Assembly (NCBI GenBank): GCA_002633005.1
Contig: NMRA01000176.1
Coordinates: forward strand, 208,607 to 272,606
Length of the DNA stretch: 64,000 nt
Source: Phoronis australis
Taxonomy: Eukaryota; Animalia; Phoronida
Direction of reading: 5' to 3'
Shown: positions 10,271-62,074 of the stretch, one piece after another
Layout of the letters: each line of letters starts with the position of its first letter
How positions within the stretch are numbered: position 1 is the first letter of the stretch
The notes under the pieces: model-generated
What the model was told of the DNA's origin: nothing
The model's database searches: none
What the model saw: the letters and a program-made list of their open reading frames with translations, nothing else
Made by a program: the position numbers and the translations under genes

Positions 10271-11488
10271 ATGTTTCAGGAAAGGTTGTATTGTGCAATC
10301 GTTGATAATGACGAAAGGGAAGTGCAAAAATTGGTCGCTCAAAAATGTGTCGACGTCAACGGGGCGTTCGTTTATACTACAGAGAAAACACATCGAGGAA
10401 AAAGGCCTCTCATCCTGGCGTCTTGGCTCGGACATTTGGAAATTGCAAAAACACTGCTCGATTCCGGCGGCTTGATCAATTTGCCATCGGCTGAACTCAG
10501 AAGGACTGCGCTCCACCTGGCAGTTAACGGAGGACACATTGAAATAATACGCCTGCTGCTCCTAAACGGGGCTGAAGTTGATGCAGTCGACGCGTTTGGA
10601 ATGTCGCCTTGCCACTATGCCATAGAATACGAATCTCTTCCCGTTCTACAGGAGCTGTTGAGAAATTCAGCAGACATCAACATCCAGGATATCACTGGAA
10701 AATCACCGTTGCACAAGACTATTATGAAAAAGCGAAACGACATTCTAGGCGAAATACTGAACCGCGTATCGGACGTGGATGTTAAAACAGATTCCAACGA
10801 CACAGCTCTCCATCTCGCTGCTCGTGTTGGATACGTAGAAGGTATTCGACAGTTGCTGCTTGCGGGCGCTGATACTAGTCCAAGAAACAAATCTGGTAAC
10901 ACGCCGTTACTAGAGGCAGTAATATACCGTCAGAAAGATGCCGTTAAGTGTCTCCTTCAATACGGGTGCGATCCAAATGGACGACAGGTGATCACCCAGT
11001 CATGTCCCCTTCATGTTGCAATCTATAAGGGATATGGAGATATAGCTGGCTGTCTGTTGGATGCTGGCTGTCTCATCGACGCAAATGCTAACGGTGAATA
11101 TCCCGCCCTTAGTCCGGCTTTACGTAATGATTTCGATATGATCAATTTCCTCATTAAACATAATTACGACTTTTCATTGCCAGCAAGACATCATGATGGA
11201 AGAAACCAGAGTTTGTGTTATGTTGCTTGCGCGAAGGGTCATTTCAATTTAGGCGCACAATGCGCTCTTCTGTCCTGCAGACGACCCATTGGAAAGGAAC
11301 TTCTTTCGACGAATCCAAATATTGATGCGCGTTGTAGTTCGGTTTTATCATCCATAAGCTCTTTGAAAGATTACGCACGAATGTATGTGAGGAAATATTT
11401 TGGACCTGGACAATTTACTCATAAATTAGACAGGTTAGACATCCCACAGTGCCTAAAAAATTTCTTGCTGTTTTCAGAGTTAAGCTAG
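10271..11488 (+). CDS. Ankyrin repeat and SOCS box protein (ASB family), 405 aa, single coding exon
   Basis: About 8-9 ankyrin repeats (TALHLAVNGGH, SPLHKT, TALHLAARVGY, TPLLEAV, CPLHVAIYKGY). C-terminal SOCS box SSLKDYARMYVRKYF..LDRLDIPQCLKNFL. Kozak accATG after a splice acceptor. Confidence 0.93.
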   Translation: MFQERLYCAIVDNDEREVQKLVAQKCVDVNGAFVYTTEKTHRGKRPLILASWLGHLEIAKTLLDSGGLINLPSAELRRTALHLAVNGGHIEIIRLLLLNGAEVDAVDAFGMSPCHYAIEYESLPVLQELLRNSADINIQDITGKSPLHKTIMKKRNDILGEILNRVSDVDVKTDSNDTALHLAARVGYVEGIRQLLLAGADTSPRNKSGNTPLLEAVIYRQKDAVKCLLQYGCDPNGRQVITQSCPLHVAIYKGYGDIAGCLLDAGCLIDANANGEYPALSPALRNDFDMINFLIKHNYDFSLPARHHDGRNQSLCYVACAKGHFNLGAQCALLSCRRPIGKELLSTNPNIDARCSSVLSSISSLKDYARMYVRKYFGPGQFTHKLDRLDIPQCLKNFLLFSELS

Positions 11489-23761: not shown

Positions 23762-25576
23762 AGGCTTGAGACACACATGATGTTTATGAACGTTACCCAA
23801 TGCCAAATTTTTTAATGTTAAAAGGATTGTTGTACAGAGTGAATTAATATGTAGTTTGTAATGGTTTGAAGAATAGTTGTTGTTTGTTGAGAAGACAGTT
23901 GTTTCATAATAAAGTTTTATTTACTTTCGAAAGGATTGTACCAGACAATACAGTTTCTAATAAGGCCAAAATAGAATAACTGGTTCTAGTCAGTGTGGTG
24001 TTTTGACAAATTGGTGAGGAATTTTTCAGTCGTCCCCATCTTCAAAAAGAAAGTCACGTGATGCCACCTGGAATGGATCCGATCCTTCCTTTTTTAACCC
24101 AGCGCCACCTGATGCCATCGTACAAAATGGTTTCACAATGAGTATGACACATATTTTAACCAGTTATGCTATTTTTGCCTAACCTGAAGCACTAGCAGGA
24201 TGGACAAATAACCTCATATATTCAGTAAATATTCAGTGATGGCCCTAACAGACAAAGTTACAAACAAATGGCGACAACAGAATTTAACAGTTACATTCTG
24301 GAACAGTGAAAGAAACATGCCACGTTCTTGTTTACATATTTCAAAAAGACGCAGTGTATACATCAATAGCAAAATTTAAAAACGATACACAATGATTTTA
24401 TAATTCATATTTAGGAATAAAGAATTAATCTCTGGACATTCAAATGCCATTACACATTTTCAATCAAAATATGATAATTCTGGAGCGGAAGATTTTGTTT
24501 GGCATGAAATCATTTAATATCAAATTGTTTTTGCTTACTTTCAATCTGACAAAATGTACAAGAGCCTCTCAAAGAATAATTCGCATTATTAAATATTATT
24601 ATATAATTTTACAACATACAATTCTAAAAAGAAGATCAAAATGCAGACAAATTAACAGGTCTGCGAATACACCAGAACAAATCCTCCAAAATCAAGATAT
24701 CTAGCAGGCACCAGCTCTCTGCTCCGCTGCTTATAAAGAAATTCACAACCTCTCAAGATGTTATCTATAACTACTCATTTACAACACAAGCGTGTATACC
24801 CAAAGTGTTGTCTAATGAACATATTAAACAAACACCCTTCAAACATAAAGAACAAAGGGAATGTTCTAATATTTCTCATTGTCCTGATTTTACGCAACAC
24901 GTAGTGATTTTACTTAAAATAAACCCTGTCTAATTTTGTAATAAGCCAATTAATTCATCATAAACTAAGCCATATTCCACATCATTGGCTTCCTGCATAA
25001 ATATTGAATTATGGTCTCAATTTATTATTAATTGGGTCATGTGACTATGACTTTCTAGTGAAATTTAGAAAAAGAAGAAAAGCACATGGATAACAAAACA
25101 ACAGAATGAATAACATGATTAATTTCAATTATTCGATATATAATTAATGTTTAAGGTCAGATCTCGAAATACTGTTTCAATTTTCTAAAATTTCACTCCG
25201 TTTTGGTTTTATGCAACTTTATTTTTTTCCAAGAAAATCACAAAAGCCAATTTTTTCATAGTCCCTCATGCAAAGACAAAAATTTTTAAAACAATCCTAA
25301 CAGCGTTTTGGAGAACAATGCATAAAGCAAAGTATCTGAAAGTTTCATATGAATCCATTTGGTTGTTCCTGAGATATGTTTTAAAGCCAGCCAAACTTGG
25401 GCATGTCTGTAAGGTCTGACATAATCTTAAACAGCAAAAAAAAGTACCAGCAGCCCAGAGCAAACAAAATAATGTGATCAGTTCACTCATAATCTACGGC
25501 ATATGAAAGCAACGTGAACCTCATCGCATATAAAGCGAGCTATAACCTAACATAGTGTTCTCTGTCCTTCAACTCA

Positions 25577-28500
25577 TTATTTCTTCTTAATGAGATTCTC
25601 TTCTCCCACAATTACCAGCAACATCTTCTTGTAGTCACCAGAGCAGTCATCCTGAAACAACATAGTGTTCACAGTACAGTCGGATGGACAGTAGACAATT
25701 GATATGGTGGATATTCTTCCACAACTAAATGTGTGGTTTCTGAGTAGTAACATTAGAATTGTTCACTAACGGCAGTCATCTGACTCAGTCTCTGTCCGTA
25801 GCTAGATTTGGACTTTTCCATCTTAGAACTAAGTGTGTGATCCCTAAGCTTATCTTATTGGTGGATTCATCAACTGCAATTAGACCAGTGTCTGGTTGAT
25901 CTCCCCATATACAAAACTGCAAGAAGTGTACTTTGTATTCAGATATTAAGTTACTCCCTTATATGTGAGCAGTGATTTTATCCAATGTTTTGCAGTAATT
26001 GGCAAAAAAGGCCTAATTCATAAAGGCACGATACTTCTTCATATACAATGCCAACCTATTAAGACTGCCAAGCATGGGATGGCTCTTTCATTCAATTAAA
26101 CTACAAACTAAAAGTATTCAGATGACAAAACGGACAGGAATTCCCGTCATCACGGCTGGGCAGAAGCTTAACTAATCATCAGAGTAGTCTTCCCTCACGA
26201 CCATAAATGAAGGGAAGTAACATCCGTCATGACCTTAGCCTTAGAAATATCAACTTACAGCAATGAACTGTCCAAGTGTCTGGTTGTAGCTAGTCTGAAA
26301 CTCTTCCTTTATCTGTACCATATCAATCTCACATCGTGATATCACAATTCGACACAAGGTGTCATCGTCTGTTCCAAGTCCCTTCATAGTCTTGTACAGC
26401 TCGTGGGCAAAGTAACCTGCTTTGTTCTGCACACAGCGAACTGTAAGGGATAGCAACATTTTGAGCAATAGAGCATTTGAATAAGGTTTCCTTAACACAA
26501 GCTTTACTACGGCAGCAGGTATAAACTCACCTTGCATCAGAGAAACTAACTTTTGCTGCTGTGAAACTGATTTCAGCTTGTTCTTTATTCAGGTGAGAGG
26601 AGATTTCTAACGTTGGAAAGGACTCTTTGTTATTGCCTGATACCACTGCCTCCGAATGAAATGAGTTTGTTCTCAACCAGCAAAGAACTTTAAGTTCTTC
26701 CCAAGCCAAGAAACAAGTTGAGACCAGTTTGTAATTGAGTTCTATCAAAAGTTTATTTTTTTGACATGGATGATGGGTTGATAACATGATTAGACATCAA
26801 ATCTCACCTTACTTTTGTTGGTGATTTCTTAAGCTTGTGAAATGTCATTTAAAAGGACGAGAGGTCAAACTTAGATCTACATTTTGAGTTGTTCAAAATT
26901 TTGTGAGTGCAGTGGGACTGTAATGAAGGACCCTAAATACTTCAAAAACATTCTTGACGAAAACTGCAATTTTTCTGATAACATATTTTTGCATATTATT
27001 ATTTGGTAATTAATTTACTTTCACGGTTTCCTGAATGAAATCGTGGATACTTAATCTCAACTTGCGAGTAAAAGGTGTTTCTGGCATCTAAGAAAAAGGA
27101 TACACTACAAAATTAAGTCAAATCAGGGTTCATGTGGACGTACCTATGGCAACCATGCCAGTCTTGAGGTCACCAGACATTTCGCTCTTAATGGCCTCTT
27201 CAATGTTTTTCTTGGACAGTTTCTGGTACTCCTCAAACACTGCTCGCAGGTGAGGATAACTCCTCGACACCAAGATCACATTGAATCTATGGAAAAAAAA
27301 ACCCGACTCACAGATGACGGATCAACTGTACAACTCACGGGTGAAGAAGTTGGGTTGAGTACCAATATTTGAAAATTTGTACAATATGTATACCAATACT
27401 GCCAATTTGATACGGTCGTTTGACACCCATCAAGTTCACTAAAATCAACTGACAAATGGTTGAGTGTAACATGATGACCTTGTAAAATGCTGTGTAACAA
27501 CAATGTTCACATGATTAGCTACAACATTTATCAAAACTGAAAGTGTCAATTCTAAAACAAATCCATCAATTTCATATAAAGAGGAGGCAAAATATGATCA
27601 TGCTTTAGATCATCCGGTCATATTTCTCCCAGTCACACTAGATGTACTCGCATTTCCTTTAAGAGTTGTATTTAAACACGCTATTAAAATGACAATTAGA
27701 GGTTAAACTTCCCATTAGGCGCATGTAAACCAGAGTTTAAATGCTAGTAACTGCAACCAGGGCTGTGTACTGTAGACCCAACACATAAGTCATGCCCTTG
27801 CGATGAAAAATCTTCAGTTATGGAATGCAAACATTGAATTCTAACCCATAATTCATGTATTATATCCCATAATTCAACATTACAGCCTCACTGACTAATC
27901 ACGTCTGATCAGTGGCAGCCATTTTGTTCGGTTATGCTAGTAAGCTCTCAAGCATACGTGTGCAAAACACTCGCCTTTCACTCACGTGACTTTACGTGAT
28001 CTTTATGGCATGAAACATGGGTCTACGAATTGCACCCCTACGACATTTCAGATCCCCACAAAATGCTTCCCAGAGATGTAATGACTGCACATGATCCTTG
28101 TGTGCCACCACCAAGAGAATTGGATTAACAAACACTTCACACAACTCAAGGAGAAGGTGACTTCTCACTCAATTAGCAAAAAAAGTTATGATTGATTACC
28201 TCGACTCATCAGTTCCCCAAGATTTCTCGCCCGCATCAAACAATGCCTGGGCATCCTGCTGTGCCTTGGTTCTGTCAAACTCTTGGTTTTCATCACGGTT
28301 AGCTTGCAGTAGAGCCACCAGGAGGCGCTTGTAGTGTCCAGATGTCTCCGATGTAATGGCTTCCTCTAGATCCTTGCTGAACACTATTAAGAGGGACGAA
28401 AAAAATTTTAAATAATCAAATACGTAACTATTTCCAAACCTTTTGTAAAGAACTGGGTGGCATGAAAGTTCAAGTTATCATCTCCCATGGATCATACCAA

Positions 28501-31500
28501 CAACATACAAATTAACCACTATCAATGTGTAATTTTTCTAAACTGAAATGCAGGAAGTCTGTCCAATTACATTTATATGACACAGAAACTTTTTTCGCGT
28601 CCCACCCAGGATCTGGGTATCAAATCATAGTTATGTAAAGACAATGACGAATTGCGATATGCACTATAGTTTGATAAGATTCTTGTACTCAATGTGGGGC
28701 AATGGTGTGACAAGAGTCCAACAAGATTTGCCTGAATGTGACACCTGGTGAATTTCTAGTGACGTACTTTTTGACAAAACAATTCATTGACAAAAATTGT
28801 ACTCCACAATAAACACAACTTTGAAAGTACAGCAGTTGTCATCAAACATCATTTCTGAGTAAAGCAGAAAGCCATACCAAATGTCATTCGGCAATAGCTA
28901 TCGTGCAAACCAAGCAAAGTAAATTTTCATGAAAAGATACTTTAATTTGTTGATAAATTTGACCAAAAAACGAAATTTCACTTGGCCACCATGTTGTGTC
29001 CCAAACTGAGGAATTTTTAACATTAGTAAATATTGAAAGAAAACAATTTCCACATTTTTGATTTTGGCCCCAAATTGAAAAACTTTTACCACACATGTCA
29101 TTCACGAAAGACAGAACGTACATTTCTTGTAGGACGCCTTGATCTGCTCCAGCTGAGCATTTGTCCTGGTACACAGTATCTCTATCAACACTTGTTCGTC
29201 TGTTCCAGCACCCTGGAAAACAATACAGCAGATCAGTATTATAATAAATGTCATTAACATGGTAGTAAAATTATCATTGTTTTTATTACCATAATTGAAT
29301 GACTCACATGAAAGTATCCAATGTCTCAAACTGAGAGTGAAAGAAACGGCAGTGCATCCATATCAACCTAGCCCATCTTCAACAGTGAGAAATTGGACCA
29401 AAGGGAAACACTCTTTCATGCTCTCACAACACTAAAGAGTTATAGGCTGACTGTTTCCCATTAAATTGGAACTTGTATAATAATTCCTTACCTCTGTGAT
29501 TGCTTAGTCAAATTAATTAGAAACAAAAGACATAGCTGCAATGTGAATATGAAGTGGGTTGAAAATTGCCTAATGTTTTTAAGAACAGTTTTGTATTGAA
29601 AATGTTCCACGACTGTAAATCACTCAACCATGTCTAGTAGGTATCGTGACATGGCTATGTGACCCCTCAAGGCAAGCCATTAGTGAAAAGGCCACTTATT
29701 TGCAGAATTTCTTGATTCCTTAATTTACAAGTTGTCAATGAATACACTGCAGTTTGTTTTGCCTAGATGATGTTTAAATAGTATTGTCATTTAGTTCCTG
29801 CTATACATTAGCATAGTTAGGAGCGTGCAAATACATGTTTAAGACAATATCATGCATGCACAGAGGAGTTTCTGGTCCAACCCTTCAAAAACAGACAGCA
29901 GACAATGGTCATCTTGCTGTGGCAGCAACTTTCTCCAGCTCACAACTGTCATGTAAACAGTCAACGAAAAAATACACCCTTCATTTGAACACAGAAACAC
30001 ACACTTGATATGTGAACACAGGAAATACACCACAACAAAGTGGGCAGACTCTTGAAGGCTACTTAGCTAATCCTCCAAGATTACATTACACACGACAGTC
30101 ACACTACAAATCAATCTCACTCTCCATCTCAAAAATCACATGGCATGCAATATGGCCCTAACCACTAAGTTGACAATTTTCAGGGGTGTCGAGCTCACTC
30201 GGTCCCGCCTCACCTTTTGCCACAACCCTGAGCCCTTACCTTCATAGCCTTGTGCAACTCATTAGCATCAAAGTCGGCTGGCTGCATGCAGAATCCGAGA
30301 CAGAGAGTCAGAAAATGGCTACTCAGCTCACTCTTGAGTTCCTTCATGAGATCCTGTTGACACAAATAGGATATGGATTCAATGAAATATCAATAAAAGA
30401 TTCGATGACAATAAGGTGCACTAGTCTTCATAAACAAGTTCACAAAATTTCTTCTCAGGAAAAATCAGTGAATTAAGCAAAAATGTCCACCTAATGCAAA
30501 ACTGGTTTCGACATATTTTTGACCAGTTTCCCTTTGAATGTTTTCAAACAGCTCAAATTCAAAATGGCGCAATTTTATGGAGTCAGGCAAAACCTTCACC
30601 ATGTAAGCCAATGCGCCACAAAAAATGTTAGTTCAGAAGCTTTAAAATACCACACATCCCAACATATGCTACACACAGTAGGACAAATCCAGCCACTTTC
30701 CCAAAAGTCCATCCGTTACATATTAGTAAATTTGCCCATCTTTTTCATTGCATATGTTACGGTTAAGCAGAACCCTACAACGTTCAAATTGGTCAAACTT
30801 CCAAACATATCTCAGACATGGCTTACAAGATTCAAAGGAAACTATCAGATACTATGCACTGTTCCTCAAAACGCTGTTAGAAATTATTGCTTATTGATAA
30901 CTTTATGCAAGTGTGGTTATTAAAAATAAGACTAGTGTGATTTTTATGAAGAAAACAATCATTGAAGATGCCACTTTTTGCAACTGATGTAGTTGTCTTT
31001 TGTGCCAAATTTTAGTAAAAAGACTGATGGTCACATGACCTACTCCATGGTACAGTTACAAGTTTGCTTACTTTTAGAAAGTTAGTGCTTGAGTATATGC
31101 AAAAATGATTCTGACATTTGGCTTATTTCTGTTTCCAACAGCAGATATATGGCGCAAGATAATGGGTCTATTGTGTTGCGTCCAGGGCAGAACTAACAAA
31201 ATGGGGTACTGATATGGATTACTTTTTATACAATAGGCAGGAGCTATTTACAACCTTTTTATAGCCTGTGATTGAGGCTATTACCCACCCGACTACAAGT
31301 CAATTAGAAAGATAAAACCAGCTTCAGTGTGACCATTTCTCTTGGTGCGTTCACACTGGTTTAGATAACAAGCAGACTTCATAACACTCCATAGATAATT
31401 GAGATAGGTACGTGCAGTAAATCAAGATATGTTCCCACCAAACTTGCTTAGCTACTGAAATAAATATCGGAGGAGAATATGACCACAGAAGTTGCAAGTG

Positions 31501-34473
31501 TATGTACCACACAAAATATAAGGTTAGAGTCTCTGAATAGGCCAAACATCTTAAGAAAATGAGCGACCAATTACCAAGTATATTGCTCTGTCATAAAGTG
31601 ATTTGGTTAGTTTCTTTACACACTGCTGCAGCTCTCATTTTCAGTATGATTGACATGAAATTTCTACACAACATGTATCTTGTGAATAGCTCAAGCATTA
31701 CTGTTTCTGGGTGGAATCATACACCAGAAGGTGCTGTGATGGCCATTATTATTATGTGAATGGATCTCTTCAAGAGCCATCTTGAGTGCACGTAGCATCA
31801 GGCATTTTTCACAACAAAAATTGTTTATTGATTGATTTCTTGTTCCGCAGTATCCTTTGGTGGATCACTCTGAAACTTGGTGAAGAATAGATCTCGTCAA
31901 GAGCTATAACATGTGTATCATTTACACACTTACGATGCTTGCTAAGAATGTTACAGATGTGGCGTAAACTTTTCAATACTATATTTGAAAGTACTAGCAA
32001 TCTTAGAAGCCAGTCAACCAGTCAATTTGCCTTAAGCTGGTTGGTTGAAGTGTCACTGCAGTGTTCTTTTCATGAAGAGAGCCTCCTAGATCTTTCTCGA
32101 ATGATCACTGTTGATGGCAAGACAACAAGTTTTGATAAAATTCATTGTTTCTTATTTCCACAACCAGAAATGCTAGGTCCAATAGATTTGGAAGATGGCT
32201 GCCAAGGTACTAAATGCTGGTTGTGAAAATAAGAAACAATCAATTTGTACTCTACCAACCTGATGGAATTATTTAGTGACAGCAGGTTTTGATGCTAGCC
32301 GTCTGTGCTGACCAGTTGCTTAATGCAGTGTACTCCCTAGGACTGTTCGCCCAAAACACCTCAAGGAATGCTAACAGTTATTTAGAAACCTGCCTGGACT
32401 GACCTGCTATAAAGTGCTTACCTTTCCAAACATGGTCTTGAATGTCTTGACAATCTCAACTCTCTGGGTACACGATCGCCGTGCCAACACATCAATAATC
32501 GCTTGCTCGTTAGTTCCTACAAAATCAAGAATTATTGTTGACATCAGTGCAACAGGCAGTGACGTCCAGTGGGATTTGAACCTATGACCTTGTGAAAAGG
32601 AGGGAGACACTCACCCTGCTAGGCGACACTTACTCCTCAGTTCATACAGTACCTAGCTTATAGTTTCCTCATAATTTGAACAAGGACCGAACTAAAACGC
32701 TAACGTTTCTTAACTTACAAATGTTATAACTAAAAGCTGAAAGCTGCAATGTAAAATGTAGGCCTAAATACAAAAAACATTTCTGATTCGGATTATGAAA
32801 ACATCTAAAAAATCTACTTTGTTCCACTAAAAGGAAACTTTACTTTTAGTAGGAAAACTGAACATTGTTCAGATTTTGGTGCATCCAGATTGCCAGATAC
32901 CGACAAAACTCCACATCAAATTTTGAATTTTGTTTGCGAAATACATACACCTTTTTAGTGGTTTTAAAAAATCATTTAATGTATTTTTGTTGATACCACA
33001 CTAAAAACTAATGCCTAACAGATAACAGAATTATATTTTACTTGCCTACCTACATGTAGTTTTTGAAAGAAGTTGAAAATATTTTTGGTTAAAATTAGTG
33101 TTGTTTTCTGTCCGATTTTCTTCTGAGTTTTCGCATGAACTTTGATAAGACCAAATTTCAAAAGCATTTTTAAAGTACTGTATCCACCTCAGGGGAATGG
33201 CTTTTGTCTTCTGCCATTTTGCATATTCTGAACTGAGCAGGAATAGAATGTGACACAATATTGAATGTGACACAATATTGAATATGTGACACAATATTGA
33301 ATGTGACACAATTATACTGAATGTGACACAATATTGAATATGACACAATATTGAATGTGACACAATATTGAATGTGACACAATATTGAATGTGACACAAT
33401 TATACTGAATGTGACACAATATTGAATGTGACACAATATTGAATATGTGACACAATATTGAATGTGACACAATATTCAATGTGACACAATATTGAATGTG
33501 GCACAATATAGAATGTGACACAATTATACTGAATGTGACACAATATTGAATGTGACACAATATTGAATGTGACACAATATAGAATGTGACACAATTATAC
33601 TGAATGTGACACAATATTGAATGTGGCACAATATTGAATGTGACACAATATTGAATGTGACACAACATAGAATGTGACACAATATTGAATATGTGACACA
33701 ATATAGAATGTGACACAATATTGAATGTGGCACAATATTGAATGTGTCACAATATTGAATGTGTCACAATATAGAATGTGACACAATATTGAATGTGACA
33801 CAATATTGAATGTGACACAATATTGAATGTGACACAATTTAGAATGTGACACAATATAGAATGTGACACAATATTGAATGTGGCACAATATAGAATGTGA
33901 CACAATATTGAATGTGACACAATATTGAATGTGACACAATATTGAATGTGACACAATATTGAATGTGACACAATATTGAATGTGACACAATATTGAATGT
34001 GACACAATATTGAATGTGACACAATATTGAATGTGACACAATATTGAATGTGACACAATATTGAATGTGACACAATATTGAATGTGGCACAATATAGAAT
34101 GTGACACAATATTGAATGTGACACAATATTGAATGTGACACAATATTGAATGTGGCACAATATAGAATGTGACACAATATTGAATGTGACACAATATTGA
34201 ATGTGACACAATATAGAATGTGACACAATATTGATTGTTTCTGGTAACCGACACAAGTGATTTCTTACAAAGTTTATGCTCTATCTACGCCTCGTACATA
34301 AAGCCTTTGATAAAATAGGACTTAGGCTGCAGGATAAACTTGAAAGTGCGTGTTTGGCATTTACGTTAATTTCAATCTGGTCTGTACTTACCAAATCCTT
34401 TCATAGCCTTTCTCAGAGCCTCAGCATCAGCTTCACTATTGAATCCACCAAATGGCTTCACTGTCCCCTCACA
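25577..34473 (-). CDS. Annexin core domain (four repeats), 8 exons
   Basis: [96 protein letters not shown]; C-terminal DDCSGDYKKMLL. Confidence 0.97.
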
Positions 34474-37400
34474 CTGTGGGTAAAATAAATAAAATATATG
34501 TATTATTAATAATTATTGTCAATTTAATATCAATTAAAAAAATTCACTGTTCTTGTCTGTTTACTATGTAGCATGACTGAAACTAGATCAATTTGCAACA
34601 TACGGAAAAAATTCTCCAGTCTCCAGTTTTGGAGAGTGGAAAAAGTATTATAATTGTATTCAAGGTCGCACCTTGTATAATGCATAAAAATTATAAATAG
34701 GCAATATTGGCCATCTCAAATTCACAAATTACAAGAAAGGCAGGTAAATTACCCAATCCAATTTTATTCCAAACAACATATTGCCAATAGTCATGACAAC
34801 TGACAGACATTGCATGCAAGAACTAGCTGCTCTGTTGGTTGTCATAATAAAACTGAAAACATTTCATGAATCTCCAAGGCAACTGAAACACTGAGGAAAA
34901 GCTGAGCTCACAGATGTGTTGCAATGTTATTGAATCCATTCTAATGAGCAAAGTTGCATTTGTCAAATACTCGTAAACAAAATTTGAGGAGTGCAACACT
35001 ATATGGTCAAGAAATGACTGGGTATTTTTGGTGTTTTAAAAAACACTAGTTAACTTTCTTCTGCTTCTGAAATTTCAAGTTCAATTTGTTTAAGACACTG
35101 ACCTGTGCAGTTGCGGAGGCCATGGCTCAGACAGCAGGCCGAAAATGGTCACAACACACAAACAGCTTGACTAACATACAAAAGCCCACTCAGACACAGC
35201 AACACATTTATAACAGTGTGTGGCAAAGTAGCTAGGTCACTGTCACACAGAGATGCATACAACAAAAGGTCATGAGCACAGGGTCAGGAACTACATCAAA
35301 AGGTCATGAACCCAGGGTCATGGGTAAAGAGAAGTGTGGAAGACACACCCACCCACTACTTATATGTTTACTACTTTACTGTAAAGTCATGGGATTTTGA
35401 GAGGTACAAAGTGCAAGGAATTTGAGAGTATCACCTGTAACGCTGGTTATTTTTTTGTCAAATTACTCTTTGTTTTCTAGTAAATTGCAATCCAACCAAT
35501 TTGCACCAACTTTTATTAAAAATGTTTTGGATGTAACACAATGTAAAGTGGTTTAAAATGTTCAAGTTAACTCACAGCTTCAAATACTAAAAACCTGCTC
35601 ATCAGCTAGTCAGAATAAAGCTGTAATATGCCTACATTTTGTTAATTAAAAAAGACAACCTTTGGAAAAATAGAAAAACTTACTACCAAGGTTGATGAAT
35701 TTGATGTATATTAACTCAGTAGAACTTTGTTAAGTATGATAATCAACTAAGAGTCAATCAATGATCTAGACAGGAAAAGCTATAAAGATGCAACAAAAAT
35801 TGCATGTAAGGTGTAGGATTGTACCAAATACGAAATGCATGTGTTCTGAAGTCTCAATTGCCTAACCCTATCCCTAAACCCAACCCCAACCCTACCGTTA
35901 ACCCCAACCTTAACTTTAATCCCAAGCTAGTCTCAAAAGGTACAATCCTGCGGCTAATAAAACTGCTGAGACAGAAAAACATGAACAGAACAATTGTGAC
36001 ATCAACATCAAGTCAGAAACTTGCAGACAAACAAACTGCAACCTCCCAGACATACAACTATATAAAGATGGCAAACTAGGTGAATAAATCTACAAAAATT
36101 ACATTTGGCTGACGTAAAGACAACAAGAAGTCTTCTAGTCATGACAGACATGTGGTAGTTCTGCAGTTATGAATAAAATGGGTGCTAAAATTGTCATTTT
36201 TTAAGTTTTCAAAAAGACTGAATACAGTGCTATTAGTTATAAAAAATACCAAGATTAAGTTGTTCTGAAACAAAAGAAGCTCAATTTTTGCGATGTAGAA
36301 TTTCATTTTAATTTTTGTAGTGAAAATTTCATAACAAAAAGTCAAACCTCTCCCCGCGTATGCTGTTAGGAATTAGACGAACGTGTAGATGAAAAGCCAT
36401 TCCTACAGCCCTCTCATGCTCACCTCATACTCTTCCATCTCAAAGAAAGGTTCCGGGTCTTTTGGTCCCTCAACAACAGGCTTCTTCTTAGCAGGGGCGG
36501 ATGCAGGTTTCTTCTGAGGGGGAGGTGGCGGTGCCGCACTCGTTGTTGAAGGCGGAGGTGTCTTCTTCGGTTTGGCTGGAAGAAACCCAGAGCATTTTGA
36601 GTATTACGGTAATTATCTACTTACTGTATTTTGAACAAAAATAATTGCCAAAGTTGTCATTTTCCATTTTTCTAAGGTTCATTATCTTGATGTAAGTAAT
36701 GAGAGCTTCACCAAGCTTTATTTTTGAGGAAAGAAAATTTAAATTTCACTTGCTTGTCATATTGAGAGCTAAATAGTTGAAAAGTAACTGTGATTAAAAA
36801 TAATCTCTCCTAGAGTACACAAAAAGATAGAAAAGTACATGAATTATAACAGACAAATATGTAGCAATTTTAGACAGACGTTTTCTCTCATTAACGTTTG
36901 CAAAGGGAGCAATGACAGACTGAAATGGATAACTGCACATCAAAGGTACAATGTCTCTGAATATATGCATCAAGCAGGTGAGTGCAGCTGGTTTTCTTCA
37001 CAACATTGAATGTACTCTGTACGTCAAGTCATCAATCAAGGCTTCATTTTTGCATCATTTGATGCAATTAAGCTGAAGAAGGCACATATTGAGTTGATTG
37101 GTACGTTTTCGTATAAAACAAAAGAAGTGAAAATCATCCACTAATTTGTGTCATCTTCCATATTTTTCAGTAATCAAAGTGTAAAAAGATTCTTCTCTTT
37201 TATCAAAATTTACTTTGAGTTTCATTCTGTGCTATTACAACAATGGACTCGGGTTACACGGAACCCAAAATTTTTGGAACGTGGGTCCCCTAAACCCCAA
37301 TGTTTGGAAAATTTTTGTAGGTCAAACATTGTGTTGTCCCATACGTTTGTCGGTGTTTTTCATTAAATATTGTTTTGTGCATCTGGGAAGGATGTTTATC

Positions 37401-40400
37401 ACTGGAATAATTTAAGAATTCCAAGACAGATGTTGTGTTAATTAGTTGGTTGAATTTTCATTCATTACAAAACATCATTCATTACATCACAATCCATCAA
37501 ACAAACACAAACTACACTCATTAGTTCACTCCAACATCTTAAACTGTAACTCGGTAGTAATTATTTTTCAATAAAGTTCCAGGGTTTAAAAGACCAAAGT
37601 GTCCAAACTTGTTATGAAAGCAAAAGGTCTCAACGGCAAAACTTAATTGTTAGACAAGTGAACACAAAAACATCTGTGAGTGTCATTAGTCTAAAAGCTG
37701 CCACGTTAATTTTATTCAGTGTCTGTTTCATGAAAGAAGACTTTATAAGACTTAAGACAGAAATTTGGTCTTACGCTACCACTTGACAGTTACTGAATAA
37801 AGGTTAAGACAATGTATTATATAGCACATCCCAACCTCAAAAAAATTCATCTGAATTATCTTAGAAACAAGCAATCAAACGTGACGTACTCCCACAGAGA
37901 CGTTGTGTTTTTCCACAAGTGACATTTAATTTACAAATATCTGTGGAGCATAAGACCAAACCCTTGATTAAAAATTCAATACGCAGTCACTTTTCATCAA
38001 AACAGACCCCAATTCGCTTAGTATCAAATTTGCGGAAATGAAAAAAGTATGTCTATGCATAGAATTCTATGTTAATGATGCTTTGAACCAACCTTGAGTG
38101 AAGAAAACTTTTGACTTGGAACACTTTCCATGAAATTGGTCTAAAATATACATTTTACACAGGGCAAAAAAGCCCTGAGTGGTTCAGCATCGAATTTAGG
38201 TTGCGATAAAAGATAACATGACACTTGAATGGAATTCCAAATTATGTGAAGATGCAATAAGTAACTTTGATTTAGATCAGTTACCATAAAAACCCATAAA
38301 ATTGGTCTTGACACTTTACTTGCATGTAGTCTGGGGAAGTTCCTTATTGCATGAGATAACGTTCAATAAGTTGCCTTGTCTCAGAATGTCATTTTGTGAA
38401 CAAACCATCGGGTTTCCTTTAAGACCAGAAATTACTTGTGACATCAACCTATACTGAACCACTTGAGGCCTGCTTTACTACGCCGTCCTAAGTAGCCTAA
38501 TGTGAAAGATAGTTTCTTTATACACAAGGATAGTTAAAGCCCCTTCAAACAAAAACCACAGGAACGTTAAACTAAAAACATTCAACCTTAAGCACAGAGC
38601 AAAAATTCAGTCAAAATCAAGCATTCTGAGTGTGTAAGGGCCCTCAGTGCCTCTATTTTGGGGTCTAATATCGGCCTCCATTCCCCTTCAGTGATTGAAA
38701 AGTTGCCCCAAAGGATAGAATCATCCCTTTAAAACATAAATTATGACTGCTTAAGGTTTCACTGAAGGTTGGTGTCTGAGGTGGCATTATCCACTCAACC
38801 AAAACATTGTGTCTCTAAGAAGGCACAGGCACCGTTCCCCTCAGGTGAGCAAGGGCCGTGTACGTGATCAGGATTGTGCATTTTTACACTCGCTTACCTA
38901 ACCGGTTACACATTGCCGCTATTTCTAAAACATGGAAAAAACATGTTTCGATTTTCCTGTATACTTGACTCATTTCAAAAATGCAATCTATAGTCCACTA
39001 CACATGAACAGCATAGAACACAAAAATCTTTCTAGCAGTATAGGACTAACTGTAATCGGGTAAAATACCATTTCCACGTAATAACATGAAACTCAGGTTA
39101 CAACAAAGATGAATAGTAATGACTCGTCATTGCAGCAAAATCCTATTGACAACACAGTCCATTTTGTACACTTTTCAATAAATTACCCATCACTATTGGT
39201 CATGATGTACTAAAAGATAAGCCACAGAATTCCTTTCACTCAACTTCAGAAAATGACAGCAAAACCATGAATCTAGTTTAAACTTATTCTAAAATGACGC
39301 TCTTCATCATGTTATCAAAATGTTTTCAAAATCACCAATGAAAATGAATGTGGAATTTTCATAAAAAATTGATTTTCTGATTGTGCACCTACAAAATGGC
39401 CGCCTCAGAACAGCATTGAACTCCACTATTTATTTATTGCCAGTAAAGAACACAATTACAGCACATACCAAAACTATTCATACAGAAGGACCCAGAATTC
39501 CTGTCCAATCAAATTCATCATAAGAGTAGACTTCCCTCGTGACCAAGAATGAAAGGAAATTGACAGGAAAATTAGAAAGGTAGCTTAGTTGCTCTGTAAT
39601 TTGAAATTCTACAGTTAAAGGGATACCAGACTCGATTTGGGCCTATTGACAGAATGAAAAATGACATTTCAATCCAATTCCCTGAAACAATGCTCTATAA
39701 CTCTCGATAACCCTCAGACATTTTGAGAAAAGTTTGGTAAATGGGCAAGCGTGACCCACAGTCTCAGCGAATTACAAAGCACCTGTGAAACGAGACCACC
39801 CACCAACAACCATAGCAATCTGTGATATAGGGAGCATATTCAGTTTTAAGTTGATTTTTGATACAAGAATGGAGAATGCATTAGCAGGTGACAAAATAAG
39901 GATTGGCTAAAATCATCAAAACAGGGTTTAGTATCATTTTAACCCAAATAGCCATCATGACGGGGAATGGAATTTTGATTATTTTTGTCTCTGAACACAT
40001 GAGACTCTTTACATGTACTACACTGATGGAAATAAAGAAAAGAGTTGGGCAGGGCAGTAGTCAAGTATGAGAGTCTCTAATTCTGAGAACCAGTTTGATG
40101 CGTGTTATGCAGAGGAGAAAACAGGTTCTCAAATGTGGAGCCCTCCCTCCCATTACCGAAAGAGTGTCTTCAATAACATGCATCCAGCAGCAATGACAGG
40201 AAAAACCTCAAAACATTAGGTATGATCTCTCACATTTAGTGCACACTGTAGTAACATATTACCGTGAAGCAAAAACTATGCACTTACGAGTGGCAGTTTT
40301 AACAGGAGACGGCTTTTTCTTTGGGGCACCAATTTTAGCAAGGCCAACTGTTAAAACATAACCGTCATCAGCTTCCTCAAAATCAACGGACACAATCTGG

Positions 40401-43400
40401 AAAAGAATGAAATTGCTACTGCTTTTAAACGGTCATGTCATCTGTTGCAGACAACATACTGATAGTGCTTTTGCCTAATTGTGTTTTTGAACAAAATTTG
40501 TTTGTCGACATACAGACACATAGCTAGGGCGATGTTTTTTAAAAGAAAAAATTCTAAAAACAAACTAAACAATTAAAAAATTTAAAATAAAAAAACTAAA
40601 CAACTTTACAAATTGTTTAGGTTAGATATAAATCAATTTTGAAACTAGTTGGCGTTTGACAAGTATAATTTAAAAAATCTCTTAATTGTCATGATTTCCT
40701 TTGTTGAAGTTACTGAAAAAACTGTGGATAATGAAAAATATAATGTACACAGAGTAAACTGAGAGAACGCTCTTTGTTTTCTCCAAGACTTTCGGATTGT
40801 TTTAGGCTGAACATTACTACGAGTACTACACACTTCAACCAATGATACTTTCCCAATTCCCAAAATGTGTGTTTAACTAACATTTTTCACTTACATAGCA
40901 CAAATATGGTGTACAAATGACAATTTTTTCAAAAAAAATCAAGAAAATTTTAGTCTATTGCTAACATGGCTTGTACTGTGTAGACGTCTTAAAATCAGCT
41001 TTTGGTAAATTTTCCATGATTTTCAGAAATGTAATCAGCATTTGGAAAATGGAAAAATGACAGTATTGGAAATTATTTTTGTGCAAAATAAATGGAGAAT
41101 GATTGTATTTTTAGTAGTCTAAACAACAGAAAACATTCTACTACAACTCTTTAGCATCGTAGGAGCACAAATGTGTCTTTCACTTGACCTAATTTCAATT
41201 TTTGAGTTGCATAAAAAAGCTTTAAAAATTATCTGGTCCTGGTTGCATGCCAGATCAACACAATGACATTGTATTATCACACATCACACGTTAACTATGC
41301 ACTTAGCATCATTCAACAACCAATCTTATCCACGGAATAAAATTTGAAGTTTTATGCATATGGATAGGTCTGACTCTGGCCTGATGTCAAAAACATTGTT
41401 CAACAACGGCAATGATGAACGCGATAATGTAATGTCACTGCTTTAATACATGTTCTTCCATGCATGCTGGCACCAGTGAGCAAAATGAGCGGTATTAAAA
41501 GGAATGAAACGCAATGGTGTTCTACCACAGACACTGTGAGACATTGGAGATTTTTCTGCGAATACCCCACCACACAGTAGTGGCAGTTTGAATGCATGAT
41601 GGTCAGATGAAGAGTAATTTCACTATCTAGCTGGATCTCGCTTATATATCATAAAATGGCTACTGTAAGTAATAGTCCATGAACAGCAAGACAACCACCC
41701 ATTACCTGTCCCATCTTGGGTTCTCCAACTTCATACTGGAACTGTTGGTCCTGACGACCGTAGTTCAACAGGTGTGCGTAGATGTGTTCTACCTGCTTTT
41801 TCCAGTTTCCTAGAAACACATAGAGGGCAGTGTGAAAATACACACGATGTATGAGAAAGTCAACAAAGGATGATAATAGGCTGACGGTAAATTATTTTGC
41901 GGGACACAAAAAAGATCATTTGGCACAAATAACCAATCCACAATGTTTCCAATGTCAAAAACATTCATTGCCAACAGGCACCCATGAAAGGCCTATTACA
42001 CAATACATGTAGGTGTTGATAGTGAGGTGGATAGAATCTACAAGAAAGGTGCTTGACGACTTACAGAATGCAACATTGAAGAGATCTAGCCTATCAACAA
42101 GTGCTGCTGGTAAACAACTTACAACAATCATTTAGCCGTGGAAAATAATATCACATTGATTTTATTCCTAGCATAATCAGTTCAGAATGGTCTTTAAATA
42201 CAAGAAATCCATACACAGTTAGCATTTCTATTATTTGATGTGACAATATCAATGTAGTGGTCCTCCTCTCAGTGCACTGAAATCCAACATAAATACCAAA
42301 CATAAAACATCAGGACTTGCGCCATTTTATCCATGGTGGATCATGTATGATAATTAAAGAGAGATAGTTAAGCCCACATTTTAGAGTTTGCTCCCATGGG
42401 TATGTGGTTAAGACAACTTTGCATTGGACTTGTCTTAGTCACAGTGGCTAGTCTCAACTTGTTGAATACCAACAGTGTTACATTAACAATTATGTTCCTT
42501 TGAATAGAACACAATTTGTTAGCCAATTTAGTTATTACCAGATTAATAAGTGATGTGGAGCTATAGTCAAGAGTTCTATGCATACAATATGCGCATAAAC
42601 CGTCTTGAAATCTAGAATAATCATGTAAAAACAAAAAAAAAAACACTTCTTTACCATTCCCTGGACTGACAGCATTAAGTTCCGGCTCTGCGGGACGCAC
42701 AGGATATTCAATAGCTCGCTGAGGAGGGGGTGATGGTGCCTGTGGTGCCACCTCCTGGAGGGTCTGTCGGATGTCTGCCACTGTTTGCATACGACTCTGG
42801 TCAATCCTCTGCAAGACATTAAAAACAATACAACTAAATTTACAACATAATTTTAATACAGTTTGTGCCAAAACTTCCAGGAAATAAATTATGATGACAA
42901 AGTATTACTCGATTACCTCCAACAGGGCCACCCCAAAAAGACTGCTCTACCTCGCGACCAGGCGTCTGTTTCATGAACTGAAGATTTTAATACAAAAGAT
43001 TGGTCTTACACTCCACACAACTAATTCAAATCTCACACGTGCAAATTTAACTGAAAAAGTCTCTGAGAATATACTCGTTACTGGTAGTCAGGGATCATTA
43101 CCATGAATTACTTCACTTTCATGAAACAGGTCCATAGCAAGCAGTTGGATGACACAGAAATCTGGCTCAAGCAAGGCCTGACATCAGACAAACACCATGT
43201 ATTGGCCAAATAACAATAGGACACTTGACACAGCAATCTCTAACAAAAGACTAAGAGTAAACAGGTTGGCATAACATTACCAACACCCCATTCAGAGTTC
43301 ACTGCACCCAGTCTACGAAATGTCTCGTGGTTTTCCCGCCGCCCATGGACCAAGAAAATCATGCACTATTCTTCTAAATAAAACTTTAACTATAGCAAAT

Positions 43401-46400
43401 TTTAAAAGAAGTCAACATACTTTTTCTGTTCATTTACGACTGCACAAAGTGACACATACATGGATACAAAATGAATGTGACGAAGATTCCCGCCTTTTGA
43501 GAACATGACATAGTGGTAAAGTGTATTAATTTAAATAAAACCAAATATAGCACTTCGTAGCGCTTTATGGGCTTACAGTACATGTCAAATGTAATCAAAC
43601 AAAACAGCACTTCCCGTCACAGTGGATAGTGACCTGTCACGACAGGTAGCTATACGATGATGGTGAATTCTAACAGCACTTCCCCATCACAGTGGATAGT
43701 GACCTGACATGACAGGAAGATACACTCTGAATTCTAACAGCACTTTGCCAGCATGACGGGACTTCCATTTGTGCTCAGACACCATGACAGAGAAGTCTGG
43801 GTTATCTTGTCCGATTATTTCTGGCATGTACTGCAACATCAACATTTTCTTTTACATAAGAAACAATAAAGGGACTGTCACAAGAAAAATAAAACTGATA
43901 CAATTGCGAAATGAAAAACAGTTCCAATATTTTAGTTATGAAAACCCATTTGATGCAAAGTCATAGCCACATCTCTCTCACAAGAGACCATCTCTCCCTC
44001 TCCCTCTCCCTCTCGGTCAGTGTTCCCTACTGAAGACTGGACTCCCTCTCCCTCTCCCTACCTCTCGGTCAGTGTTCCCTACTGAAGACTGGACAAAGAC
44101 TTTCAATAATGAAACTCACCTGTATCATTTGTTGAGTGAGAAAGCCCATGTCTGCCTGAGGCTTGGGCACGGCATACGGCGGCGGTATGCCATTCATGCT
44201 GGGCTGACCGTATGGCGTGAAGCGTGCAGAGTTGGGGTCTGTGTAAAGTCCCTGGAGACCCTCGGGTGCACCACCCCATACATTGATTTGCGTGCCTGAG
44301 TAGTTTGTCGGGTTGAAAGGGCCCTCAATATCTACAAAAACGGAAAGCCATTGACTTACTGATACATTTCCTCATTGCTTAAAACACAAATGATTGGAAA
44401 TGGATTCTAGACTTGAGAAAAACTCACGGGTTGTTTCTGCTTCAGAACTGAATTCCTAGTCATGACAGACAGTCAAGACTCCAAGCTATTTAATTCTAAT
44501 TCAAGGAAAGCATAAGAATGCAATGATGTCGCTTTGGAAGGGTAAATATGATTGTGAAAAAAGTTGCTCTCTTTTTACGTCAGATCATTAGTTTACAGTA
44601 CTATGATCTTAACTGATATTGTCAAACCTTATCCGAGCAGGCTAACTTGGTTGCATAAAGCTGATTGGTACATTAATGGAAGATGGTGTGTGTTCTTCAG
44701 TGTAAAGTGTGATTTACCACAAATGCGCAGTGAGAGTGGCTCAACATCAATGACTAAATGAAGAAATGCAAAAAAGTTTTACCTTGTTCACCCCTGGGTG
44801 TTCCATTGCTACCAAAAGATGGTTTCTTCTTTTTGTCTTTGTCTTTGTCCTTGTCTTTGTCCTTGTCCTTATCTTTGTCTTTCTTCTTTTTGTCATCTTT
44901 CTTTGGAGTGGAGACTTTCTGAACAAGAGCATTGTGGGATAATGTGAATCTTGATGACAACAACAAGCATTCTTAGCTGTGACCATCTGTCAGCACAGCA
45001 AACAAGAATGACCAATTCGCACGAGTTGCAGTAAACAGTCCTAAATTTAGCATTTAGTATGGCGGACATCTGAAATTTCATTTGAAATTTTTCTGACAAC
45101 AAAAATTCACGGCAAAAGAAAGTTGATTTCAAAACCTGAAGCAAAATTTTGAGCATTTCAGCAGTTGACTTAATCAGGTGTTGAAAAACTGCAACTTAGG
45201 CAATTATTTGTATGCAAAATTGAAAAGAGGTTGCAGCCTACCTAGTACGTTCCCATGATGAAATGTTAGAACAAGATAAGAGCTTGGCTTTACCGCATAC
45301 ACTAATGGGAATTGAAACATGCCCATAATGTAAGACAAACAACTGACTTAGCTTCTTGTTACTTGGCAACTTTTCTTCCACTGTAATATGGCCATAAGAT
45401 TGTGTGTTCTCACCAGGAGGAAGATAGACAAGGCAGGGGCGTTTTTCTAAGGGACTTCATAGGCAAAAGTTCATTTGGCTAAAAATCTACTACTGAGCAG
45501 GCTGCAGATTTATATCTCTTGGCTTTTAGTTAGAGGTAGATTTGCTGACATATAGTCCTAGCCTGATTTGGTGAAACGGGTTGAGTCATTCGTAGGCTGA
45601 GTTTTAGTGAAAAGGTCACAAGACAATTGACTCGTCCACAAATAGCCTCATGATCCGTCGCTTAAAAGGAGAGTTCACAAAGACATCCTATCTGCTGTCT
45701 CATGAGGAATGTGCAAAACATCAATGTGCAAAATGGTCTATGGGAAAAAATGCATGATTTCAAAATATGACTACTACGAGCATCACACACAGATAAACAT
45801 ATTTCATGTCTCCAAATCAAAATCTGGGGACACACGAGTACATAGCTATACAACTAGTACAGTGGTACTCAAATTTGAACACTGACTTATAGCACAACCA
45901 AATTCGTGGACCACTACTGTACCATGTTTTTCTTGTCTTTCAGTCGTTTGTTTCCCACAGAGCTGACGGATGAGATTGAACTGATGCTGCTAATGACGGA
46001 CGAGGCATCGTCAAAATCCTCGATGAACTCATCAACGCAAAATGTCTTTGTGACCACAGCACTCTCTTGTAACCCATCTCTGAAAGAAGAAAAATGACAT
46101 CGATTGTGAACATAATATGGAAGAATTTATTCACTTAGTTATTCTGAGTGTTTTCCATTAACCTTTCTTCTTTCACACATAATAACAGCCCAGTGCTTTT
46201 CAAAGACTTGTTACTTTTCTGTAAACAATAGAAACATTTACAAATGTTGTTTTATGACATCTACAAAGTACATATCATACTGGTAATAGACCAAAATTGT
46301 TTTAACTTTTATTTCTGTGCACAATTTTGGTTTTTCCCGGGATGCCGTTTTTTAGGATTACTAAAAGAGAATGGAAAGACACGTGGCTTTCTGTACTTTT

Positions 46401-47213
46401 TGTACCCAGGTGAAAGATACTGATTGGTTAATTTCTAAATGTATAAATTTATAAAAAAGTTCAGTTCCATTCAGATTTAGGCATATTATTTGTCAAACTC
46501 AAGCGCACTAGATTTAAAAGATGAATGGGTTGGACTTTGACCATTAAAAAGCGACCACAGTACCTAGATATGGCGATGACCTTAAGTGTCCTTTTACCAG
46601 GTTTCAATGTAAAAGGTCCAATGTACTTGAACGTAGATTCTTTTCCTGAAACTTTCAACTGGAATGGATTGGGTTTGGTGCCATCTGTGCTAAAGTATAT
46701 CTTGCAAAGAGGAGACTCTACAACAGACAAATGAAGTTAATTATTTTAAAAACTTTAGCAATGATATTTCAGCATGAGGAATGTTGTTTTATTAGAAAAA
46801 AATGGGTTATGTATAGAAAAACTATAATACTACTCCACAATGTACTACCAAATTTTATTTGGTCAAATAAATGTTGGCATGAATAAAAATATTTAGACTT
46901 TGTTTTCAATCAATCAAAGAAACTTGTGTTTCCAAATAGATGTCAGATAACAAAGCGCAGTGAAACAATGAAATAAATAGAAAACATTTCGTAAAATTGA
47001 TCATGGAAGCCAACACTTTCCACCATTGTCATGTACCTTGAAAATGATTGTAAAGTTTTTACGCAGGGCTGAATTGTTGGTGGATAATAACATTCCCTAA
47101 CCTGTTGTAAGCTCAATGTATGTTCCTGAGTCAATATGACTAGTGGGCCTGCCAGGAAGAGGATCCCGAAGGGGTATAATCTGCGGAGGAATGATTGCAC
47201 CGGCACTGGGCAT
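25577..47213 (-). CDS. DZANK1-like N-terminal modules fused to an annexin core (long isoform, 751 aa, 17 coding exons)
   Basis: Minus-strand exons, all AG/GT and phase-compatible: 47213-47102, 46717-46564, 46079-45923, 44918-44783, 44331-44120, 42808-42655, 41809-41706, 40396-40288, 36575-36424, 34473-34392, 32516-32422, 30353-30240, 29212-29122, 28383-28200, 27286-27144, 26440-26259, 25651-25577 (2256 nt, no internal stop). The 36424-to-34473 junction is inferred from phase, not from transcripts. Confidence 0.8.
33241..34233. repeat. Minisatellite, 17-bp unit TGTGACACAATATTGAA, about 57 copies, in an annexin intron
   Basis: Directly visible. Variants include TGTGGCAC, ATATAGAA, +AT and +TAC insertions. 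It generates the spurious SHSILCHIQYCVTF ORFs. Confidence 0.98.
35103..35123 (-). CDS. Candidate alternative first coding exon (MASATAQ) giving a short 328-aa annexin
   Basis: Strong Kozak gagccATGG, 7 codons, then a CAG|GTCAGT phase-0 donor matching the phase-0 acceptor at 34473. Confidence 0.65.
36424..47213 (-). CDS. DZANK1-like region (N-terminal Fn3-associated/CHB_HEX_C-like domain plus the SPG-x-G-x-WKKQ module), 9 exons, 430 aa
   Basis: MPSAGAIIPPQIIPLRDPLPG..HIDSGTYIEL..IYFSTDGTKP..TFKYIGPFTLKPGKRTLKVIAISRDGLQESAVVTKTFCVD, and AVSPGNGNWKKQVEHIYAHLLNY..F...VGEPKMGQIVSVDFEE. Both resemble conserved blocks of vertebrate DZANK1 as recalled. Confidence 0.82.
39615..39942 (+). mobile_element. 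Copy of the 6915-7275 repeat family
   Basis: ttaaagggatacc..caatctgtgatatagggagc..aaatcatcaaaacagggtttagtatcattttaa. Confidence 0.65.
43604..43770. repeat. Short tandem repeat (~62-70 bp, 2-3 copies)
   Basis: aacagcacttccc-tcacagtggatagtgacctg-ca-gacagg repeated. Confidence 0.75.
43994..44093. repeat. Local tandem duplication (~50 bp x2)
   Basis: ctccctctccctctcc..ctctcggtcagtgttccctactgaagactggac occurs twice. Confidence 0.8.

Positions 47214-50948: not shown

Positions 50949-62074
<11,126 letters not shown>

Follow-up and report, generated by a model that had tools for sequence, protein, structure and literature searches.

A phoronid annexin gene with two isoforms and N-terminal DZANK1 modules belongs to a widespread invertebrate family

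The N-terminal tail of an annexin is usually short or low-complexity, which raises the question of how an annexin gene could come to encode a head of two folded domains and what such a head would do. We addressed this question for a minus-strand gene at 25577-47213 of a 64,000-nucleotide stretch of the Phoronis australis genome (assembly GCA_002633005.1, contig NMRA01000176.1, positions 208,607 to 272,606 of the forward strand; hereafter the window). An initial annotation, made from the sequence alone, had described this gene as a fusion of DZANK1 modules with an annexin core. Our results indicated that the gene produces both a long fusion form and a plain annexin, and that its architecture is shared by many invertebrate proteins. 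We propose, with slightly less than even confidence, that the long form is a Ca2+-switched tether between membrane and the microtubule scaffold of the ciliary base, in an old two-isoform invertebrate annexin family whose modules came from a duplicated DZANK1.

The annotated splicing was reproduced when the gene was rebuilt from the window. It comprises 17 minus-strand exons running from an ATG at 47213 to a TAA at 25577, which together form a 751-aa open reading frame (2256 nt), and all 16 introns are of the GT-AG type. The features of the locus are as follows:

47102..47213, minus strand: exon 1 of the long isoform, opening with the ATG at 47213 and MPSAGAII-PPQIIPLR; it begins the all-beta Fn3_assoc/DZANK1 N-domain; joint 47102→46717 read 3 + 4 times
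46564..46717, minus strand: exon 2, Fn3_assoc core (IYFSTDGTKP); Pfam PF13287, E 5e-7
45923..46079, minus strand: exon 3, in which VTKTF closes the N-domain and an acidic/Ser linker follows; splice to exon 4 seen in reads
44783..44918, minus strand: exon 4, Lys/Asp repeat linker (DKDKDK), predicted to be disordered
44120..44331, minus strand: exon 5, carrying GFLTQQMI as well as the family motif GPFNPTNYSGTQINVWG (44273-44323, aa 190-206), which may be a variant LC8 site; joints read
42655..42808, minus strand: exon 6, encoding a short helix and AIEYPV and opening the second DZANK1 module, module 2 (LNAVSPGN)
41706..41809, minus strand: exon 7, module 2 helices (WKKQVEHIYAHL..EPKMG); 40% identity to bat DZANK1, E 6e-15
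40288..40396, minus strand: exon 8, module 2 beta hairpin and start of the Pro/Lys tether
36424..36575, minus strand: exon 9, Pro/Lys tether followed by a hinge of acidic and aromatic residues (PEPFFEMEEYE); donor of the fusion joint
35103..35165, minus strand: first exon used by the short isoform, extending at least over the contig piece 35103-35165; ATG at 35123, MASATAQ
25577..34473, minus strand: exons 10-17, shared annexin core of four repeats (Pfam PF00191); joints read 4-35 times per run
34392..34473, minus strand: exon 10
33246..34238, no strand: 17-bp tandem array of 57 copies, non-coding, inside intron 10
32422..32516, minus strand: exon 11
30240..30353, minus strand: exon 12
29122..29212, minus strand: exon 13
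28200..28383, minus strand: exon 14
27144..27286, minus strand: exon 15
26259..26440, minus strand: exon 16
25577..25651, minus strand: exon 17

Transcription of the gene was examined in four RNA-seq runs carrying the same species label (X1-X4), of which X4 was scored as contigs. Fourteen of the 16 introns were recovered as joints (8 and 6 in the two stretches examined). For intron 10, loose read ends at 32517 matched the end of exon 10 (17, 19 and 19 reads), which itself lay beyond the stretch aligned, and intron 2, between exons 2 and 3, was not among the joints listed. The predicted fusion joint between exon 9 and the annexin core, 36424→34473, was spanned by 11 reads with 7 starts in X1 and by 7 reads with 6 starts in X2, and was found in no read of X3 and no contig of X4. 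A lack of transcripts across this joint, which the initial annotation had named as its refutation, was thus not observed. The first mate of these fusion-joint reads was always on the plus strand, in agreement with minus-strand RNA. No single long read in the RNA data examined covered the complete long transcript. Minus-strand RNA depth continued for at least 1.5 kb beyond the stop codon (24000-25577), marking a long 3' untranslated region, and depth was absent at 32652-33240, adjoining the 17-bp array.

An alternative start is provided by a further exon with its donor at 35103, which is spliced to the same acceptor at 34473, as seen in 16, 11 and 33 reads of X1, X2 and X3, respectively, and in two contigs. 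This transcript encodes a 328-aa plain annexin starting at the ATG at 35123, with an in-frame stop just upstream, and is likely an ordinary annexin; its first exon suggests an internal second promoter driving the short isoform. Thus, the long form described by the initial annotation is real, and the 35103→34473 reads reveal a short annexin isoform that its one-isoform gene had overlooked. Of the reads at the exon 10 acceptor, the long form supplied 11 of 27 in X1 and 7 of 18 in X2 (18 of 45 in the two together) and none of the 33 in X3 (Fisher p 1.4e-5), where only the short form was seen at this joint. Owing to these unequal shares, use of the long form appears to be sample-restricted. In X3, a few joints were also recorded for exons 5-8 (2, 1 and 2 reads; 41706-44331, minus strand) and none were listed for exons 1-5 or 8-10; they represent either a third, partial transcript or sampling noise.

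Sequence comparisons bore out the claimed domain composition of the protein. Within the first 430 residues, aa 3-105 matched bat DZANK1 with 44% identity (E 1e-22) and aa 298-370 matched it with 40% identity (E 6e-15), so that both N-terminal modules are indeed DZANK1 blocks; the Fn3_assoc match of exon 2 lies above the Pfam cut-off. The reported lack of zinc ribbons and ankyrin repeats was also upheld: the 751-aa protein contains no CxxC, and when the window was searched by tblastn with DZANK1 from human and from snail, no zinc-ribbon or ankyrin exon was detected within the gene. Exons 11-16 each match Pfam Annexin, five of the six above the cut-off, and the single set of core exons encodes four PF00191 repeats, as does the Lineus ortholog. 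All four Ca2+ loops retain the acidic cap (GFGTNE..E, GAGTDE..E, WGTDE..E and GLGTDD..D), in agreement with the description of the core as intact. Four intact type II annexin sites are expected to bind anionic lipid upon a rise in Ca2+.

The structure of the window protein was represented by that of its Lineus ortholog, modelled with AlphaFold2 from a 45-row alignment (mean pLDDT 75). The model comprises a beta domain at aa 1-110 (block pLDDT 79-96), a disordered linker at aa 111-279 (pLDDT <50) followed by two low-confidence helices, a confident helix-helix-hairpin module at about 330-400 and, beyond a disordered tether, an annexin core of the standard kind, which matched annexin A4 in Foldseek with an E of 2e-31. 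Module 2 had no Pfam match above the cut-off. A fold search with its DZANK1-type fragment model alone, against libraries to April 2026 that did not return PDB entry 11xu, gave no Foldseek match at E<=0.001 and a best VIA Z of 2.9; the helix-helix-hairpin elements were alike in both models examined, that of the family and that of the DZANK1 type. In addition, a hinge of the form P-[YF]-[FY]-x-x-E-x-E lies right before the core (window 36424-36460, minus strand). It is kept in orthologs, occurs in the long form only, and might fold back on the annexin core.

The initial annotation knew of no description of this architecture, and the search for it in other invertebrates that it had suggested proved productive. 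A search with exon 2 led to a chiton protein in which Fn3_assoc is combined with eight annexin repeats. The N-terminus of this protein matched 58 proteins, 47 of them carrying both annexin and a DZANK1 module. The architecture is therefore not a rarity; it marks an old, widespread family. Named members come from molluscs, the annelids Owenia and Paralvinella, the nemertean Lineus, the brachiopod Lingula, the flatworm Macrostomum and the orthonectid Intoshia. When 1.84 billion representatives were scanned with HMMER, annexin and a DZANK1 module occurred together in 10 of the best 150 matches, and Priapulus, Tubulanus, Schistosoma, Echinostoma, Anoplocephala and Asterias joined the list. The fusion is thus present across at least seven phyla, a range that is a lower bound, as 21 proteins were given names. 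Zinc ribbons were found in none of the annexin-bearing matches (47 + 10, some shared), and vertebrate, insect or cnidarian members were not seen among the matches listed. An Atlas cluster of 158 proteins, possibly the query's own, contains Annexin in 100% and Fn3_assoc in 98% of its members. The proteins are usually labelled 'annexin A6-like', 'Annexin' or 'hypothetical' in databases. Their MPSAG start is shared by 42 of 50 family members and by none of 25 canonical or annexin-less DZANK1-like proteins. An earlier search for spiralian DZANK1 with a two-sequence profile gave 810 matches, and the 120 listed were all mammalian except for the snail query, a gap that the HMMER scan filled.

The most conserved motif of the family, overlooked in the initial annotation, lies in the disordered linker: the GTQ[IVM]N core of GPFNPTNYSGTQINVWG occurs in 52 of 53 protostome-type family proteins. 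LC8 is described in the accessible text of PMC6607443 as a general dimerising hub that, within disordered regions, favours a Gln flanked by branched residues at -1 and +1. The T-Q-I of SGTQIN fits this preference.

The number of annexin cores varies within the family. One core is present in the window protein and in Lineus, Tubulanus, Lingula, Macrostomum and Intoshia, and two are present in most mollusc members; over the family, including Priapulus, Owenia and molluscs, the number ranges from one to more than two. In a tree of cores from family members only, the first and second mollusc cores formed separate clades (99/99 and 99/97). Because the double cores of annelids and molluscs share no clades, doubling may have been repeated. 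The window core was also considered as a recombinant of the first and second cores, which found no support: its identities to the two lay within 3 points of each other in all four quarters, and its position in the core tree had no starred support.

The relationship to DZANK1 is illuminated by species that have both genes. In Mya, Tubulanus, Macrostomum and Priapulus, the fusion gene stands beside a canonical DZANK1 with 10 CxxC and ankyrins, and the sponge Sycon has the canonical DZANK1 form. Co-occurrence in the same species indicates that the fusion is a paralog of DZANK1, and the gene is accordingly a member of the annexin family and not of DZANK1. We built a module tree of 59 rows from the matches, omitting rows without either module, near-duplicates, many vertebrates and the divergent fusions Intoshia and P0056. 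In this tree, 21 protostome fusions fell on one side (100/99), the echinoderm Asterias and Glandiceps grouped together (98/79), and the fusions, Asterias and Glandiceps stood opposite canonical DZANK1 (94/89). Two gastropod DZANK1 models, Candidula (P0054) and Batillaria (P0184), lie in the canonical clade and are devoid of zinc ribbons, through either a second loss or skipped exons.

The sea star provides an apparent intermediate. Five annotation models from two Asterias species combine Fn3, module 2, ankyrins and annexin, and one of them, XP_033629438.1, has TQTVGLFYP and the MPSAG start and no zinc ribbons. Among the fusions, ankyrins were found in those of Asterias only. The Asterias core matches the window core with 399 bits and 59% identity, against 341 bits for the best four-repeat annexin of the PDB, a database poor in invertebrate annexins. 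The initial proposal that the annexin core had replaced the ankyrin cargo end does not agree with a predicted protein containing both, which suggests that annexin was appended first and ankyrins were lost later. In the simplest order compatible with these sequences, DZANK1 would have been duplicated before the protostome-deuterostome split and one copy would have lost its zinc ribbons; annexin would then have been appended behind the ankyrins, as in the sea-star state, and the ankyrins would have been lost in protostomes. A fuller scenario is that the bilaterian ancestor fused the duplicated copy to annexin as a Ca2+-switchable link from doublet to ciliary membrane, which was kept in protostomes and sea stars, is apparently absent from vertebrates, and gained a second promoter giving a free annexin. 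We regard this scenario as rather unlikely to hold as a whole.

The proposed tether at the ciliary base draws on what is reported for DZANK1. A recent preprint describes DZANK1 as a dimeric microtubule-associated protein of the transition zone; in its accessible text, dimers of DZANK1 and of LC8 are placed on the outer A-tubule of the doublet there, and no ranges of residues are given (bioRxiv 10.64898/2026.06.11.731632). A PDB search returned human DZANK1 as four chains of entry 11xu, which probably belongs to the doublet structure of that preprint. The joining of DZANK1 modules to a Ca2+-dependent membrane binder suggests a membrane-to-doublet tether. The modules would continue to direct the protein to the base of the cilium, the site at which DZANK1 dimers and LC8 cover the A-tubule of the transition zone. 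The SGTQIN motif, which is conserved and disordered, would bind an LC8 dimer or a similar partner and so pair two chains, and the Pro/Lys tether would let the annexin core reach the membrane. Available parts of two further papers report annexins, not further specified, among the genes common to ciliary-band cells of oyster and flatworm (PMC10396302), and cross-links of annexins with actin and keratin at the base of mammalian cilia (PMC13082021).

Several points weigh against this proposal. TQTVGLFYP, the presumed LC8 site of DZANK1, is found in none of the 53 protostome-type proteins, and many TQT-like peptides fail to bind LC8 (PMC6607443, accessible text). In the fusions, module 2 has an eroded basic [RK]GYWR[KQ] patch, and its net charge averages -2.1 over 22 fusions compared with +1.4 over 23 DZANK1s (-5 in the window protein), so that tubulin binding could be lost. 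The accessible text of bioRxiv 10.64898/2026.06.11.731632 is silent on the DZANK1 residues contacting tubulin. For all family members, localisation and binding are predictions, and expression of the long form in ciliated cells would have to be read from samples of unspecified tissue. As to the origin, the splicing of the Asterias proteins is that of annotation models, and AU (approximately unbiased) tests, run on quick trees that missed better ones, reject neither one origin of the fusions (p 0.85) nor a grouping of Asterias with chordate DZANK1 (p 0.64), as would follow from a separate fusion in sea stars.

These points leave room for other readings of the long form. That the modules have left the cilium and now serve as a dimerising or partner-binding head, giving a multivalent annexin for membrane repair, bridging or cortical scaffolding, is possible, if doubtful. 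The loss of the basic patch and TQTVGLFYP would fit such a role, as would the use of the same core by the short form and the two cores of most mollusc members, as in the membrane-bridging annexin A6. However, the Fn3_assoc domain and module 2 are well conserved across phyla; moreover, as a weak sign, the phyla in which the family was found are heavily ciliated, and none of the members named among the matches listed comes from an insect or a nematode. The ciliary adaptor of the initial annotation shares its ciliary connection, which is plausible, with our proposal, and differs in attaching vesicles to dynein under Ca2+ control through NINL or ninein. DZANK1 does bind DYNLL1/2 and cooperates with NINL and dynein when post-Golgi cargo is moved to the cilia of photoreceptors (PMC4617706), and an annexin core suits vesicle binding. 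Nevertheless, NINL binding was mapped onto DZANK1's ZNF_RBZ domains (aa 244-317; PMC4617706), which are absent here and in the 57 annexin-bearing matches, some of them shared. This part of the adaptor model is therefore weak, and since LC8 is a general hub (PMC6607443, accessible text), LC8 binding would not be evidence of a link to the dynein motor. We consider the NINL-dynein adaptor improbable. Finally, the long transcript might be a functionless read-through from a truncated DZANK1 copy into an ordinary annexin gene, given that the annexin has its own first exon, that the fusion joint is absent in X3 and X4, and that no long read spans the whole transcript. However, about 40% of the acceptor reads in X1 and X2 use the fusion joint and the hinge-bearing fusion occurs in at least seven phyla, by which the read-through reading is largely refuted and barely credible.

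With these assignments, more than 50 proteins labelled 'annexin A6-like' or 'hypothetical' are united in one family, the origin of which can be traced and for which sea stars offer an apparent intermediate, and annexin biology gains a subfamily with folded N-terminal domains. For DZANK1, they mean that two modules persist without zinc ribbons and ankyrins, one of which has no Pfam family or PDB match in the copies searched. If the tether between ciliary-base microtubules and membrane holds true, the long form would be a candidate for forming, as a single protein, the link between transition-zone doublet and membrane, which is poorly understood and possibly Ca2+-sensitive.

Other features of the window lie outside this gene. 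At 4610-5704 (plus strand), two open stretches match the caspase domain PF00656 (E 4e-22 and 1e-11), and the first reads QAC-Q-S, the usual caspase form being QACRG. At 10271-11485 (plus strand), a gene without introns encodes a 405-aa ankyrin-repeat protein that ends in a SOCS box and has only generic ankyrin similarity to DZANK1. An exon-like stretch at 56463-56620 (plus strand) appears to resemble the C-terminal domain of NAC-alpha/HYPK proteins. At 59692-60338, two 324-bp tandem copies are 99% identical with N near their junction and are possibly an assembly artefact.

We found no description of the DZANK1-annexin architecture in the open literature searched. A survey of atypical annexin architectures was reportedly made by Fernandez et al. 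in 2017 and could already list this one. Neither 'annexin' nor 'dzank' occurs in the accessible main text of Wu et al. 2020 (PMC7441323), the available part of a planarian dzank1 RNAi paper (PMC13594227) mentions no annexin, and the accessible passages of bioRxiv 10.1101/2020.10.16.342709 have no bearing on the architecture. Flatworm annexins B5, B5a and B10 were catalogued by Cantacessi et al. 2013, whose accessible text treats the N-termini as divergent and mentions no DZANK1 or Fn3 domain (PMC3795353). In the supplementary alignment of that paper, Echinococcus granulosus B5, Clonorchis sinensis B5a and Schistosoma mansoni B10 show the family motif as NHSGTQIN.

Like human DZANK1 (752 aa; PDB 11xu chain G1), the window protein carries an Fn3_assoc domain at its N-terminus and the SPG..EP[RK]MG module after it. 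It differs in lacking the zinc ribbons that hold the NINL site, the ankyrins and TQTVGLFYP, in its less basic module 2 and in the added annexin core. Annexins A4, A7 and A11 and Hydra annexin XII resemble the Lineus model closely in their single four-repeat core with intact Ca2+ loops (target TM 0.94-0.97, rmsd 1.3-1.8 A among the best ten matches), whereas the 430-aa head with two folded domains sets the window protein apart from ordinary annexins. Mollusc 'annexin A6-like' proteins (e.g. XP_064594867.1) and uncharacterised annexins of Lingula, Lineus, Owenia and Priapulus are its orthologs; the full-length matches among them have 28-47% identity over aa 1-430, and they form one clade in the module tree. 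Most mollusc members differ from it in having two cores; the two cores or eight repeats that define annexin A6 are not present in the window gene, which has a single core exon set, and the A6 label appears to reflect the double core only. Asterias XP_033629438.1 and Glandiceps XP_078000769.1 are like the window protein in having both modules and no zinc ribbons, and unlike it in keeping ankyrins and TQT[VT]G, the Glandiceps model being without annexin.

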